DNA of 64,000 nucleotides, taken from positions 5,255-69,254 of the forward strand of contig BJHF01000017.1 of NCBI GenBank assembly GCA_014191855.1, written 5' to 3'. Below the pieces are notes generated by a model, which made no database searches, was not told the origin of the DNA, and worked only from the letters and a program-made list of their open reading frames with translations. The stretch is from Deltaproteobacteria bacterium. GTDB taxonomy: Bacteria > Myxococcota_A > UBA796 > SXON01. This document shows positions 50,011 through 57,442 of the stretch, piece by piece; within the stretch, counting starts at the first letter, position 1; every line of letters begins with the position of its first letter. The position numbers and the translations under genes are program-made.

Positions 50011-50152
50011 GGACGGCGGGGGTTGGCAGACCATTATCGCACGGAAGGCAGCGCTGGGCGATGCGACAGGCCCGGTCCCTGGGGCCAGGTTGGGTCGCGA
50101 CGCATCGCGGCGCCGCCGAAGGCCGGTCGCGACACACGCGCGGCGCGGTGTT

Positions 50153-50350
50153 GCAACCGATTTCGACCTACTCGCGGGAGTAGCCTCACCTCGGTTGAAC
50201 CTGGCAACCGATCTCGACCTACTCGCGGGAGTAGGGTCACCTCGGTTGAACCTGGCAACCGATCTCGACCTACTCGCGGGAGTAGGGTCACCTCGGTTGA
50301 ACCTGGCAACCGATCTCGACCTACTCGCGGGAGTAGGGTCACCTCGGTTG
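50153..50350 (+). repeat. Array A: four tandem 51-bp hairpin repeats without spacers
   Basis: The unit is gcaaccgatctcgacctactcgcgggagtagggtcacctcggttgaacctg, at 50153, 50204, 50255 and 50306. Units 2 and 3 are identical full 51-bp copies. Unit 4 matches them over 45 nt and lacks the linker, and unit 1 has 3 substitutions. Each unit folds as CAACCGA / internal loop / CCTACTC-gcgg-GAGTAGG / TCGGTTG. The linker aacctgg is invariant. Confidence 0.9.
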
Positions 50351-50421
50351 GGCACCCCCCCAAACAAAAAAAACCGCTCGCCGTCCACGCGCGCTCGCGG
50401 CACACTCTTCACGAGGTGCCC

Positions 50422-51651
50422 ATGCCGGACGCCACCCTCCTCCTCGACGTCGCCCGCCACGAGGCCCGCGTGGGCGAGCGCACCCTTCGGGCCAAGTGGT
50501 TCGTCTTCTGGTGCGCCCTCGCCACCGCCGGCCCCGAGGGCCTCACCACCGACGACATCCGGGCGTATCGACCGTGGAACCATGAACGTTGGGCGTCAAT
50601 CGGCAAAGAGATGAGCCGTCACCTCCGCGCTACCCGCACGGCGGCGCTGCTCAAGCCCGGGCAGCACACGCGCCGCTGGGTGCTCAACGCGCCGGCGGCG
50701 TGGATCCCGGGGGAGTGGGCGGGGCGGGAGTGGCTGGCGGCACAGCGCGCCGCGTCGGACGCCGGCGGCCAACTCAACGAGCTTGTGCGAGCGACGGTCG
50801 GGCTCTTGTGTGGGGACGAAGGGCTGCTGGCGGGCCGGCTCGCGGAGGCGGCCGAGCACCGCGACCGTGGCTCATCGGACGAGTGGACCGCCGCCGCGTG
50901 GACGCTGCTCGACGCGCGGGCGCTCGCCCGCGCCGAAGACCACGAGGCCCTCCTCACTCTCCTGGAACGCCAACCCAAGCCACGTAGCGCCGCCTCCCGG
51001 GCCCTTGCCGCGCGCCTCGACGCCATAGACGCCCTCGTTCGGCGCAGCGACGACCCGGTCGCTGCGCGCGAGCGGGTGAGCCGGGCGGTGTGTCGCCTCG
51101 AGGGCACAGGCGATCACGCCGGCCTCGCTACATGTCTCAACGTACGCGGCGTACTCGACCTTCGGTTGGGGGATCCCGCCGCAGCGGAGACTGCGTTCGC
51201 GCAGGCCGCCACCATCGCGTTGCTGGTCGGCGACCACTACCTGGTGCAGGGCGCGCTCACGAACCTCTCCCTGGTGCAGGCCAGGCTCGGCAAGGAGGTG
51301 GACGCGGATCGTTCCCTGGAAACCGCGCTTTGGTTATCCGACAAGCTCGGCGTCGGACGCGACTCCGCCCAAACGGAGGTTTGGGCGGCGCTCCGCGCGC
51401 TCCGGCGCGACGACGGTGAGGCCGCGCACCGGTGGATCGCGCGTGCGCTCGGCATCGTGGCCCACCTCCAGTCCGACTGGGAGCACGGGCACTTTCTGGC
51501 CGCGCGCGCCGCCGTATGCCAACGCTGGCCGGAGGGCGCGACCAACCCGGATCGGGATCTCGCCGCGGCGGAGCGGCTCTTCGGCCTCGCCGGGGACGAA
51601 GTGAACCGGGAACGCGTGGCCCGTGCTCGCCGCACCGGGAGGCGCGGGTAG
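50422..51651 (+). CDS. OmpR/PhoB-type winged-helix + TPR-like transcriptional regulator (SARP/BTAD-like architecture)
   Basis: The real start is ATG 50422 inside ORF 50023..51651. LLLDVARHEARVGERTLRAKWFVFWCALATAGPEGLTTDDIRAYRPW...RRWVL fits the Trans_reg_C pattern. The C-terminal helical repeats read AETAFAQAATIALLVGDHYLVQGALTNLSLV. Confidence 0.65.
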   Translation: MPDATLLLDVARHEARVGERTLRAKWFVFWCALATAGPEGLTTDDIRAYRPWNHERWASIGKEMSRHLRATRTAALLKPGQHTRRWVLNAPAAWIPGEWAGREWLAAQRAASDAGGQLNELVRATVGLLCGDEGLLAGRLAEAAEHRDRGSSDEWTAAAWTLLDARALARAEDHEALLTLLERQPKPRSAASRALAARLDAIDALVRRSDDPVAARERVSRAVCRLEGTGDHAGLATCLNVRGVLDLRLGDPAAAETAFAQAATIALLVGDHYLVQGALTNLSLVQARLGKEVDADRSLETALWLSDKLGVGRDSAQTEVWAALRALRRDDGEAAHRWIARALGIVAHLQSDWEHGHFLAARAAVCQRWPEGATNPDRDLAAAERLFGLAGDEVNRERVARARRTGRRG

Positions 51652-52532
51652 CGGGGCTGAGCCTGAGTGTCGCCAGGCGGCCGCCCCCGCAGGTGTGCGG
51701 CCACGAACCCGGGCGACCGGGAGCCCCGCGGGTTGGGCACCAAGGCCGCCCAACCTCCAGTCAGGCAATTCTTGGCACCCCCTGCGTGCGGGAAGTGATA
51801 ACCACCTGAGCGGCGGGAAGGAGCCCGCTGCTTTGGCACCTGTGGTGTCTGGCAAAGCCAAACAGCACACACATCGCGGCCCTGCAACCCGTGAGCAGGC
51901 GCGCGTGTTTGCTCCACGATGCGAAGCAAGTGCGGGAAGAGAGATAACGAGCGAGGCGTCGGGAGCGGGAGGCTGACCGCGACTCGCGGACCATTCGAAT
52001 TCGGACTGTCAAGGAGCGCTGCGGAGGCGGTGGTTCACTGCGAAGGATATGGGGTTTTCGTATTTGACATAAGATTCGTTATCAGAACCGCCGTTCTTCC
52101 TGGCCAGGGACGGGAGCGAAGCTGGCCAGACCTCATCATCCCCCACAGCATAGCACGGTTTCCCGTGAGGAGCGATCCTCGTGCGAAAGTTTCGGACCTT
52201 CAAAAAAGAGCCAGGGAGTCTCTGTGGCAAAGGTAGTACGCCCATAGTTCAGGGGTGCCTGCGAGCGCCCCCCGTCGCAACGCCGCCGCCCCGCCCGTAG
52301 ACCGCCCCTGAGGATACGTGAGACTCCCCGCCCTCTCGGTGCGAATCGGGGCCTTCGCATCCGGTGCCGACGGCTAAACGCTCGGGAGCGGCGCCGCCCA
52401 GCGCCCTGCCGGGGATGCCCGCTCGCTCCCGGCGCTGCCACGCGCCTGTGCCGGGCCAAGCCGAACCAGAGCGGGTAAGGCCTGCTCAAGCCGACCCTCA
52501 CCTTGCGGCGCTACGCCGACGTCACCGCCGCT

Positions 52533-52769
52533 TCACCAGCGCTGCACGCCCAACTTACCCACAGGGCACGCGAGGATTCGTCCCAGGCCGCCGCGCCGGG
52601 CGCGCATCACCGTGGCCTTGAGCTTGGCCTGGTCCAACGGCCCGAAGCTGGTGACAAACACACACGGCAGCGCCTCCGCGAAGCCCAGGTCGCGCAGCGC
52701 CCTACTCACGCGCTCGGCGACGGCCCGCGGCGCAATGTCAACCGCGACCACCCACTCGGACTTCACCAC
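52533..52769 (-). CDS. cas2: Cas2-like protein (78 aa)
   Basis: The GTG start overlaps the RT-Cas1 stop (GTGGTGA). The beta-alpha-beta-beta-alpha-beta pattern reads WVVAVDIA / RAVAERVSRALRDLGF / ALPCVFVTSF / LDQAKLKATVMRA / LGRILACPVG, with Asp in the first strand as in Cas2. The protein is short and divergent. Confidence 0.65.
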   Translation of the reverse strand: MVKSEWVVAVDIAPRAVAERVSRALRDLGFAEALPCVFVTSFGPLDQAKLKATVMRARRGGLGRILACPVGKLGVQRW

Positions 52770-56284: not shown

Positions 56285-56340
56285 GCGCGGGAGCGTGGCC
56301 GGGTGTGGCGTTCACAGGGGTTCACGGGGAGGGCGCCTCC

Positions 56341-56470
56341 GTGGCGTCGCGATCCGCCGCCAAGCCCGCTCCGACAAAGGGAGCCAGGCTGCGCGGATCG
56401 CCCAGGTTGTTCCCCCACCGGACCCTCGACTCGCGCCTTGCTCCGCTCCCCCGGGCTAACCTCTGTCCGA
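56341..56470 (+). repeat. Degenerate third copy of the leader-like segment plus one decayed hairpin unit
   Basis: gtggcgtcgcgatccgccgccaagcccgctccgacaaagggagccaggctgcgcggatcgcccaggttgttcccccaccggaccctcgac aligns at ~75% identity with 57232-57312, the segment immediately 5' of and entering array B. The hairpin part has decayed (…cccccgggctaacctctg versus …caccccggttgaacctgg). Confidence 0.6.
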
Positions 56471-56540
56471 GAGCATCCAGCTCCGCGACCTCGGGCAGCG
56501 GGGAGCAGACCTATGGAGCTTCCTGCTGTTCTCTGGGTAC

Positions 56541-57110
56541 TTGAAGGCTCGAAACGTAGACCACACGGGGGCCCGTACGGTAGCGAGCCTCTCGATCCCC
56601 AATCGCGAGGTGGTCACCTGTTATCAGGAGCTGTTTTTGGAGTGGCTCGATCAGGCCGTTGGGGGCACCGCCCAAACCGATGCGCTGGGGCGCGCCCTAC
56701 TTGGGGGAGACCTACAGGAGTTCCAGGCCAGACTGCAGAGGGTCGTGGTCGAATCGCTCTCCTACTTTGATGTTGGCGGAAAAACCCCCGAAGCCGTGTA
56801 TCAGGCGTTCCTCGTGGGTCTGCTCGTGCACCTCGACGCAACTCACATCGTCGATACCAATCGCGAGAGCGGGTTCGGTCGATACGATGTTTGTGTCACC
56901 CCGCGGTCGGCGGGCGCGGGCGCGTTGTTGGAGCTCAAATCCGTCGATCCCGAGCGGGAAACGTGGGAGGAGGCGCTGGCCTCGGCGATGAAGCAGCTCC
57001 ACGATCGGGACTACGCTTCGGCCCTCCGCCGCGCCGGCGCCGAGCCGATCTGGTTGTGGGCGGCCGTGTTTGACGGGAAGCGGCTGCGGGTGAGCGTGGA
57101 GCGGGGGTAG
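56541..57110 (+). CDS. PD-(D/E)XK nuclease, PDDEXK_9/DUF1703-type, stand-alone or 5'-truncated
   Basis: AVYQAFLVGLLVHLDATHIVDTNRESGFGRYDVCVTPRSAGAGALLELKSVD...AMKQLHDRDYASAL...IWLWAAVFDGKRLRV matches the C-terminal nuclease module. That module normally follows an AAA-ATPase-like N-terminal domain, which is absent here. TTG start. Confidence 0.7.
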   Translation: MKARNVDHTGARTVASLSIPNREVVTCYQELFLEWLDQAVGGTAQTDALGRALLGGDLQEFQARLQRVVVESLSYFDVGGKTPEAVYQAFLVGLLVHLDATHIVDTNRESGFGRYDVCVTPRSAGAGALLELKSVDPERETWEEALASAMKQLHDRDYASALRRAGAEPIWLWAAVFDGKRLRVSVERG

Positions 57111-57294
57111 GTGCAGCGGGGGCCCCGGGCGATGCGACAGGCCAGGTTACTCGGCCAGAAAGCGTAGCCGCGCATCGCGATTTCGCCGCGCTAGTGTCGC
57201 GACACAGGCAGCGTCGCCCCGGTGGCGCTGCGATCCGCCGCGACGCCCGGTTTTGCAAAAGGACAGGGCTGCGCGGATCGCCCTGAAGGTTCTT

Positions 57295-57442
57295 GCCAAC
57301 CGGGCTCGACCTACTCGCCGGAGTATGGGCACCCCGGTTGAACCTGGCAACCGGGCTCGACCTACTCACCGGAGTAGGGGCACCCCGGTTGAACCTGGCA
57401 ACCGGGCTCGACCTACTCGCCGGAGTAGGGGCATCCCGGTTG
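57295..57442 (+). repeat. Array B: three tandem 51/52-bp hairpin repeats without spacers, variant of array A
   Basis: The unit is gcaaccgggctcgacctactc(g/a)ccggagtaggggcaccccggttgaacctg, at 57295, 57347 and 57398. It has the same inner stem CCTACTC/GAGTAGG and the same linker aacctgg as array A. The outer stem carries a compensatory change (A:T in array A becomes G:C here). Confidence 0.9.

Follow-up and report, generated by a model that had tools for sequence, protein, structure and literature searches.

Are palindromic tandem repeats that lie beside a cas1 gene necessarily partners of the encoded integrase, or can they be ordinary repeats of the host chromosome between which such a gene came to lie? 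This question is raised by a stretch of 64,000 nt from a Deltaproteobacteria bacterium (UBA796; SXON01; assembly GCA_014191855.1, contig BJHF01000017.1, forward strand, positions 5,255-69,254; in the following the window), in which an island with a gene for a reverse transcriptase (RT)-Cas1 fusion is framed by two arrays of 51-bp hairpin units. The island lies between a GT87-family glycosyltransferase gene (48778-50010, plus strand; Pfam GT87, E=3.6e-13), which represents the conserved left flank, and an rlmB/SpoU methyltransferase gene (57480-58337, plus strand; Pfam SpoU_methylase and SpoU_sub_bind), which represents the conserved right flank. The spacer between these two genes is probably a lineage-specific variable hotspot, in which recombination would have put the island together at host repeats that resemble bacterial interspersed mosaic elements (BIMEs) and variable-number tandem repeats (VNTRs). 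The modules at the two boundaries are likely to be composite host extragenic repeats, consisting of a hairpin (H1) of the repetitive extragenic palindromic (REP) type and a 51-bp hairpin minisatellite, rather than CRISPR-related parts.

The evidence for a variable interval comes from the related contigs L007-L020, which were retrieved via rlmB homologs and among which L008, L009 and L015 have orthologous GT87 DNA adjoining the interval. L007 represents the same organism (99.95% identity over 55563-61350) and has the same three-unit array. In L008, the DNA of which is 85-90% identical to the window, the 3' end of GT87 is followed by H1, then by ~440 bp of unrelated DNA and then by rlmB, and there is neither the island nor the 51-bp unit. 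L014, whose rlmB product is 98% identical at the amino acid level, is like L008 upstream of rlmB and has no array there. In L009 and L010 a GGDEF gene occupies the interval between GT87 and rlmB, and in L015-L018 there are three other genes. As GT87 and rlmB stay neighbours while the content between them differs among relatives, the interval is variable and the island is real. The flanking core genes are syntenic and the inner content of L008, of L009/L010 and of L015-L018 differs from that of the window, as is typical for genomic islands. The island measures 7.07 kb between the two genes and has a host-like G+C content. A preliminary description of the window had claimed an island of ~7.4 kb and had suggested comparing the GT87-rlmB interval of relatives, and the claim is borne out: relatives link the two genes by different DNA, and L008, which among the relatives free of the island is the closest, retains H1 after GT87.

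Some details of this interval may be noted separately. The 3' end of GT87, including the stop codon, differs between the window and L008, as ~100 bp in the window (49952-50052) correspond to 13 bp in L008 (104-116), and the longest listed open frame of L008, which is truncated at the 5' end of the contig, continues through the H1 hairpin. In L014, positions 1-110 upstream of rlmB contain a 20-nt perfect inverted repeat (GGTCAGGACGATCGTGATCG … CGATCACGATCGTCCTGACC), which is another hairpin-type element at the hotspot.

For the analysis of the boundaries, three covariance models were used: R1 for the 51-bp unit, R2 built from three H1 copies only (those of modules A and B and copy H1a of L008), and R3 as a second-round model of the H1 family. 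Modules A (50051-50353) and B (57122-57445) are collinear and in direct orientation, and their edges are sharp, with the similarity ending upstream of 50051 and 57122 and downstream of 50353 and 57445. The 17-mer GGGCGATGCGACAGGCC, which had been noticed as identical at both boundaries, occurs in exact form only at 50056 and 57127 of the window, and the further collinear blocks that had been described are likewise confirmed, as GCATCGCG and GTCGCGACACA align between the modules before the arrays follow. The 17-mer is part of the REP-like hairpin H1. The H1 of module A (50054-50110, plus strand; R2/R3 81/72 bits) is 88% identical to H1a of L008 (118-173), which has the same position after GT87, and the H1 of module B (57125-57180, plus strand; R2/R3 77/70 bits) is 74% identical to that of module A and 70% to H1a. 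As the H1 of module A is thus close to the copy of L008 and that of module B is at a distance of 70-74% identity to both, module A would be the resident copy and module B an older or an imported paralog. Module B additionally contains H2, an H1-family element in inverted orientation (57228-57285, minus strand; R2 24 bits, E=2e-3), which together with a preceding small hairpin has a fold energy of -44.5 kcal/mol. Module B therefore consists of an inverted doublet, H1(+)/H2(-), followed by its array, whereas module A has no H2.

A partial third copy, module C (56334-56412, plus strand), comprises the small hairpin and an H2 (56347-56405, minus strand; R2 27.2 bits, E=3.6e-4). It is 76-85% identical to 57215-57292, and its inner stem shows compensatory changes relative to module B. 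A degenerate third copy had been proposed for 56341-56470, and the hairpin part of this proposal holds, while the trailing 51-bp unit does not, as R1 gave no match there. Module C is abutted by a gene fragment of the PD-(D/E)XK type (56541-57110, plus strand; Pfam PDDEXK_9, 1.5e-13). As this ORF (open reading frame) aligns only to residues 395-490, i.e. to the C-terminal ~100 residues, of a 516-amino acid AAA+PDDEXK protein that is encoded beside a tetratricopeptide repeat (TPR) gene in L002, it is a 5'-truncated fragment, and the partial module stands at the point of truncation. The nuclease module that had been described there is thus correct with respect to the PDDEXK_9 domain, but not as a complete gene. 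A fourth, decayed unit that had been suspected at ~51700-51745 is explained by chance, as R1 found no match at E<=10, the fold has a z-score of -0.1, and the 12-mer match is within chance expectation.

What kind of element is H1? The family has seven copies in the 64 kb, three on the plus and four on the minus strand, at five intergenic sites, and three of the seven are found at unrelated sites: at 2760-2817 (minus strand; R2 25.8 bits, E=8e-4), at 6458-6515 between convergent sigma-54 activator and CarboxypepD_reg genes (minus strand; 23.3 bits, E=3e-3), and at 21087-21143 in a non-coding stretch downstream of rpsA (plus strand; 27.8 bits, E=2.6e-4). Beyond its own copies, R2 recovered these three and the two minus-strand H2 elements of modules C and B in the window (E=2.6e-4 to 3e-3), and in close relatives it matched L014 129-184 (minus strand, 9e-6) and L008 527-597 (minus strand, 3.5e-4; termed H1b). 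R3 added no further members in the window and found none in more distant relatives or in RT-Cas1 loci. All seven copies of the window are extragenic, either between ORFs or at 3' ends of genes, and the other H1 sites are intergenic and adjoin housekeeping genes. The consensus is nnGGGCGAT…ATCGCGG, and the next stem positions co-vary (GCGATGCG/CGCATCGC, GCGATCCGC/GCGGATCGC, GCGATTCGC/GCGAATCGC). Pairing of the outer helix is complete (100%) in 10 members, and at three pairs both sides have changed, in an alignment that was fitted to the model and is thus biased towards structure.

Short extragenic palindromes of this kind are known as REP/BIME elements of Enterobacteria and as REPINs of Pseudomonas, a REPIN consisting of two inverted REPs that are moved by REP-associated tyrosine transposases (RAYTs) (PMC3337134, PMC3116915). 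H1 and H2 agree with these elements in being short, extragenic and imperfectly palindromic, in that the base of the stem, GGGCGAT…ATCGCGG, is conserved and the interior varies, and also in their occurrence in both orientations at unrelated intergenic sites, mixed with other short shared motifs. They are lineage-specific, as L008 and L014 have copies and more distant relatives do not, and inverted doublets are found in module B, H1(+)/H2(-), as well as in L008, H1a(+)/H1b(-). The differences are that only seven copies are seen here, with 64 kb surveyed, that the elements are about 56-70 nt long, that no RAYT was seen, and that the inverted pair of module B precedes a direct tandem array, which is absent from BIMEs. 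The comparison nevertheless supports an assignment of H1 to a lineage-specific REP/BIME-like family. The core of the “leader” of the preliminary description is this H1, and neither the label nor the implied analogy to CRISPR can be kept for an element that is scattered over positions 2760, 6458 and 21087 as well as L008 and L014. Its alternative idea, a REP/BIME-like family that happens to be dense here, applies to the “leader” H1, given the R2 members at unrelated sites and in close relatives.

Further short motifs, AAGGTTCACGCAAAG… and the purine-rich block GAGATCACGGAGGGG, form a second scattered intergenic set beside the REP-like hairpins, at 6382-6415, 21154-21172 and 22260-22293 (inverted), at 20964-20992 and 22195-22223 (inverted), and at 227-242 of L008. 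Such short motifs, common to these intergenic regions and L008, are suggestive of a BIME-like mosaic. Near the inverted motif copies there is also an intergenic CT-rich simple repeat tract (CTCTCC; 11-17-bp period) at 22227-22340.

The second constituent of the modules, the 51-bp unit (H3), forms array A with four abutting two-stem hairpin units (50150-50353, plus strand; R1 71-83 bits per unit) and array B with three (57293-57445, plus strand; R1 75-80 bits), and in neither case are there spacers. Tandem arrays of one 51-bp hairpin family with four and three units had indeed been described, and they are recovered by Tandem Repeats Finder with a period of 51 at 50153-50350 (3.9 copies, 97% matches) and 57297-57442 (2.9 copies, 95%), and by the hairpin core GACCTACTCGCGGGAGTAGG, which, if up to three mismatches are allowed, has seven occurrences in the 64 kb, all of them inside the arrays, at an expectation of 0.01. 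Each unit folds with CAACCGA/TCGGTTG as outer and CCTACTC/GAGTAGG as inner stem, at a fold energy of about -23 kcal/mol (-22.8 in array A) and a z-score of about -2.9, and the two arrays differ by a single compensatory change of A-U to G-C. Identity among the units amounts to 86-100% inside one array and to 75-88% across the two arrays, which indicates that each array has been homogenised independently.

The unit appears to be exceptionally restricted. In the window, R1 detects only the seven known units, the next best match having 14.6 bits (E=0.16), and in the tested relatives outside L007 as well as in RT-Cas1 loci it detects none. A scan of genome contigs for the core gave two matches, both due to chance and without a hairpin, metagenome contigs gave no match to the core pattern, viral contigs and plasmids gave none to the unit pattern, and a scan with a pattern for the unit junction gave three matches, none of which is a unit according to R1. 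Open reading frames run through the arrays in four of six frames in array A and three of six in array B, and a chimeric query of all open frames of both arrays, directed at arrays that might have been miscalled as genes, had no match among 5.8 billion proteins. In Rfam, the entire window had no match at gathering thresholds, and 49900-57600 had none at E<=1 either, and in a simple promoter/terminator scan of the island nothing exceeded the expectation from shuffled sequences.

Minisatellites of the type of mycobacterial interspersed repetitive units (MIRUs) consist of direct tandem units of 40-100 bp between genes of the same strand. The arrays of the island likewise consist of head-to-tail units of 51 bp in spacers between same-strand genes, with four versus three copies, homogenisation within arrays and several open frames. 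They differ in that each unit is a strong two-stem hairpin and that just two loci are known, both at island edges. The copy numbers are four in array A and three in array B, with the same three in array B of L007, which is 99.95% identical and the single comparison strain. As the searches found no copies elsewhere, the closest analogue is a hairpin-forming intergenic minisatellite.

How could host repeats come to frame an island? In an assembly by recombination, which we consider the probable origin, a composite repeat would have been resident after GT87, with its H1 common to L008, and recombination between composite copies, either as a Campbell-type integration or as an unequal exchange, would have imported or rearranged the cargo. 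The outcome would be direct repeats at both ends, with module B, the H1 of which is 74% and the 51-bp units of which are up to 88% identical, at the far end, and module C may be what remained where a breakpoint cut off the 5' part of the PD-(D/E)XK gene. That modules A and B have diverged implies that this event was not recent or that the incoming copy stemmed from a diverged relative. If the repeats are active at all, they may act as ordinary transcribed or extruded hairpins, e.g. as stabilisers of mRNA ends or as recombination substrates. Due to the direct repeats at both ends, the island is predicted to be losable again, as homologous recombination between the repeats could delete it. Insertion into, or recombination between, copies of the repeat module was one of the histories that the preliminary description had envisaged, and in outline it is this history that agrees with the variable interval, with the 88% identical H1 of L008 and with the position of module C at the truncation point. 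The hotspot between the two core genes would thus be prone to recombination and marked by the repeats, and the locus would be an example of host extragenic repeats that frame, and probably mediate, the gain of a defence-type island.

Must the repeats have anything to do with the arrival of the island? REP-like elements and the minisatellite could have seeded the two intergenic regions independently, and unrelated intergenic sites indeed contain H1-family elements at a density of about 1 per 19 kb, while the extra H2 of module B, missing in module A, is what would be expected of independently mobile REPs. This is nevertheless rather unlikely, since modules A and B share a collinear arrangement of H1, GTCGCGACACA block and 51-bp array, and the same composite would hardly arise twice; moreover, the 51-bp unit is found nowhere else in the 64 kb, and a partial copy lies exactly at the point of gene truncation. 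Another view, in which the modules would be the attL and attR sites of a site-specific integrative element, would account for an island bounded by direct repeats, one copy of which is ancestral to the site. It is extremely improbable, as there is no integrase or recombinase in the island, as the nearest tyrosine recombinase (42688-43611) is XerC/D-like and syntenic in L009, and as repeats of about 300 bp with just 74-88% identity are unlike att cores. An integron with attC sites was likewise considered and rejected, since IntI is missing and relatives have the nearby tyrosine recombinase in synteny.

Several points weigh against an assembly at host repeats. At 74-88% identity, modules A and B seem too diverged for a recent homologous crossover, and no examined relative has a clean empty site with one hybrid module and a 51-bp array. 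The genomic copy numbers of H1 and of the 51-bp unit are known from the 64-kb window only, and the latter is seen solely at the two island edges, which leaves room for an island-specific role. Four of the seven H1-family elements are in the 7.4-kb island region, which fits recombination at repeats and repeats that belong to the island alike. Finally, the Pfam scan of window proteins, which does not cover every ORF and left five proteins without a match, revealed no RAYT transposase.

The island is of special interest with respect to its cargo, an orphan module of the adaptation type that is present besides the truncated PD-(D/E)XK gene. Its main gene (52763-56284, minus strand) encodes a 1173-amino acid fusion of a 420-residue domain resembling TrwB/HerA/FtsK, an RT of the group-II-intron type, and Cas1. 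RVT_1 (4.8e-32; 111.8 bits, cut-off 29.6) and Cas_Cas1 (2.8e-55; 187.9 bits, cut-off 22.3) are both found in this single protein above the curated Pfam thresholds, TIGR00287 (cas1) matches with 174.8 bits (cut-off 71.7) and PADLOC Cas1_IIIb with 2.1e-95, so that the earlier assignment as RT-cas1 stands. For residues 1-420 (55025-56284, minus strand), an ATPase fold like that of TrwB/VirD4/HerA/FtsK is predicted (pLDDT, i.e. predicted local distance difference test, 74). The best match of this model in the PDB is TrwB (E=4e-6; template modelling score 0.45), and the Walker A-like motif is degenerate (ARTG). A Cas6-like N-terminal domain, which was also considered because it would have connected RNA hairpins with the fusion, is ruled out by this predicted fold. 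The fusion is very rare: the N-terminal domain family has eight cluster representatives among 1.84 billion proteins, a word-indexed search found five proteins related to the RT-Cas1 fusion, a search for the identical protein had no match, and a scan of viral contigs for the family gave just matches to the RT domain with 25-39% identity. In a further locus (L101, 21-2309), a 62% identical homolog has the N-terminal domain and the RT and stops thereafter, and downstream of the RT there are three small ORFs and no detectable Cas1 domain.

The stop codon of the fusion gene is overlapped by an ORF of 78 amino acids in the position of cas2 (52533-52769, minus strand), which is conserved in all five loci, in L001-L004 with 39-60% identity and directly after RT-Cas1. 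It had been termed cas2, and this name is not supported, as searches in Pfam, NCBIfam, PADLOC and PDB profiles gave no match and as hhalign against E. coli Cas2 gave a probability of 0.1%. A structure model from the single sequence (pLDDT 47) was too poor for a fold search. The ORF is Cas2-like by size, position and conservation only.

RT-Cas1/Cas2 modules, associated with type III and type VI-A/B systems, are known to lie beside CRISPR arrays with a leader (PMC5541045, PMC6821258). Could the 51-bp arrays then be partners of RT-Cas1, as spacer-less CRISPR-like arrays, as integration targets or as structured RNAs for the RT? They flank cas-like genes at a distance of <=1-2 kb from RT-Cas1 with a non-coding block before the repeats, and they are the sole clustered regular palindromic repeats near an apparently intact Cas1, and the 64 kb lack any CRISPR array. 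However, the repeats have no spacers, the units abut, period and unit length are the same, and matches of 95-97% extend over the full period. They are 51 bp long, GC-rich and strongly folded, and instead of a locus-specific leader there is the scattered REP-like H1. In the four homologous RT-Cas1 loci, L001-L004, neither 51-bp arrays or units nor H1 elements are present. As the RT-Cas1 module is conserved elsewhere without the repeats, a functional tie of the repeats to Cas1, which had been suggested as one possibility, is not supported. Moreover, neither a Cas6-like domain nor an Rfam match is found, and a non-coding element of another kind is conserved in the RT-Cas1 family, in the gap described below. 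We therefore give this possibility only a very slim chance. Nor does the locus look like an adaptation module with an adjacent CRISPR array and effectors, as no further cas gene, including effector genes, was found among the Pfam-scanned proteins, which are mostly housekeeping proteins (including cmk, rpsA, guaA, rsmB and the XerC/D-like recombinase). The general caution is that palindromic tandem repeats beside cas1 need not be related to CRISPR.

The fusion can also be compared to the Cas6-RT-Cas1 fusions of the Marinomonas/Thiomicrospira type (PMC8102632). The RT-Cas1 core is the same, and a small downstream ORF is in the position of Cas2. The differences lie in the N-terminal 420 residues, which are predicted to be TrwB/VirD4/HerA/FtsK-like instead of Cas6, in the great rarity of this domain, in a TPR protein as conserved partner, and in the fact that no CRISPR array or effector was found nearby.

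The gene of this partner (50422-51651, plus strand) encodes 409 amino acids, and homologs are neighbours of RT-Cas1 in L002 (44% identity) and L001 (35%). In both loci the fusion, the 78-amino acid ORF and the TPR homolog co-occur, and the neighbouring genes differ. The TPR assignment relies on one Pfam match to TPR_12 (E=3.9e-5) that, at 24.2 bits, is below the curated cut-off of 30.1 bits, and on weak TPR matches in PDB profiles. The protein had been described as a regulator with a winged helix-turn-helix and TPR; the TPR part can be retained and the winged helix-turn-helix could not be confirmed, as no DNA-binding domain was detected by Pfam, NCBIfam or PDB profile searches. This also bears on the idea that the palindromic 51-bp units are tandem operators for a DNA-binding protein, e.g. 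the TPR protein, and regulate the downstream genes for the TPR protein and rlmB. Each unit contains nested perfect inverted repeats, CCTACTC-N4-GAGTAGG and CAACCGA-N30-TCGGTTG, and the arrays stop 35-68 nt before start codons on the plus strand (68 nt in case of array A and the TPR gene). Besides the failure to detect a DNA-binding domain, it is the lack of such arrays near the genes of the TPR homologs in L001 and L002 and upstream of rlmB in close relatives that makes operators very unlikely.

The conserved non-coding element mentioned above is located in the 880-bp gap between the TPR gene and the 78-amino acid ORF (51652-52532). It is AT-rich, comprises ~37 nt (52052-52088, minus strand) and has the core GATAA-N6-TTAYGTCMA, which the window contains just once, at an expectation of 0, and which outside the window occurs only in L001 (8119-8158) and L002 (5279-5315 and 5579-5615) among about 100 loci. 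Since these sequences themselves served to define the motif, independent evidence is provided solely by its absence elsewhere. In the window, L001 and L002 the element is on the strand of RT-Cas1, 350-650 nt from the 3' end of the TPR gene. Its flanks are not conserved, and small ORFs beside it in L001 and L002 are homologous neither to each other nor to the window. A role as operator or promoter is conceivable, as is one as the integration repeat of a module without an array. The cargo, with its very rare RT-Cas1 fusion, a translocase-like N-terminal domain as predicted, a conserved TPR partner and a 37-nt element of its own, is in this respect of greater interest than the repeats around it.

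An integration repeat would imply that the ATPase-RT-Cas1 fusion, the 78-amino acid protein and the TPR protein constitute an integrase system without a CRISPR array, the true DNA site of which is the 37-nt element and not the 51-bp arrays. We regard this as unlikely on the whole, and the locus that speaks for it is L002. The window and L001 have one copy of the element, and in L002 it is doubled, with two copies that are 97% identical, in direct repetition and 300 bp apart. They enclose an insert of 263 bp, which has no match in a phage collection and contains an ORF of 46 amino acids with a ribosome-binding site. Such a repeat pair with an insert is the trace that an integrase system would be expected to leave after one repeat-duplicating integration of a long cassette, possibly derived from complementary DNA, and the window and L001 would then represent “empty” sites with a single repeat. 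If the 37-nt element is indeed the integration site, the system would be a case of a Cas1 integrase that acts outside CRISPR immunity.

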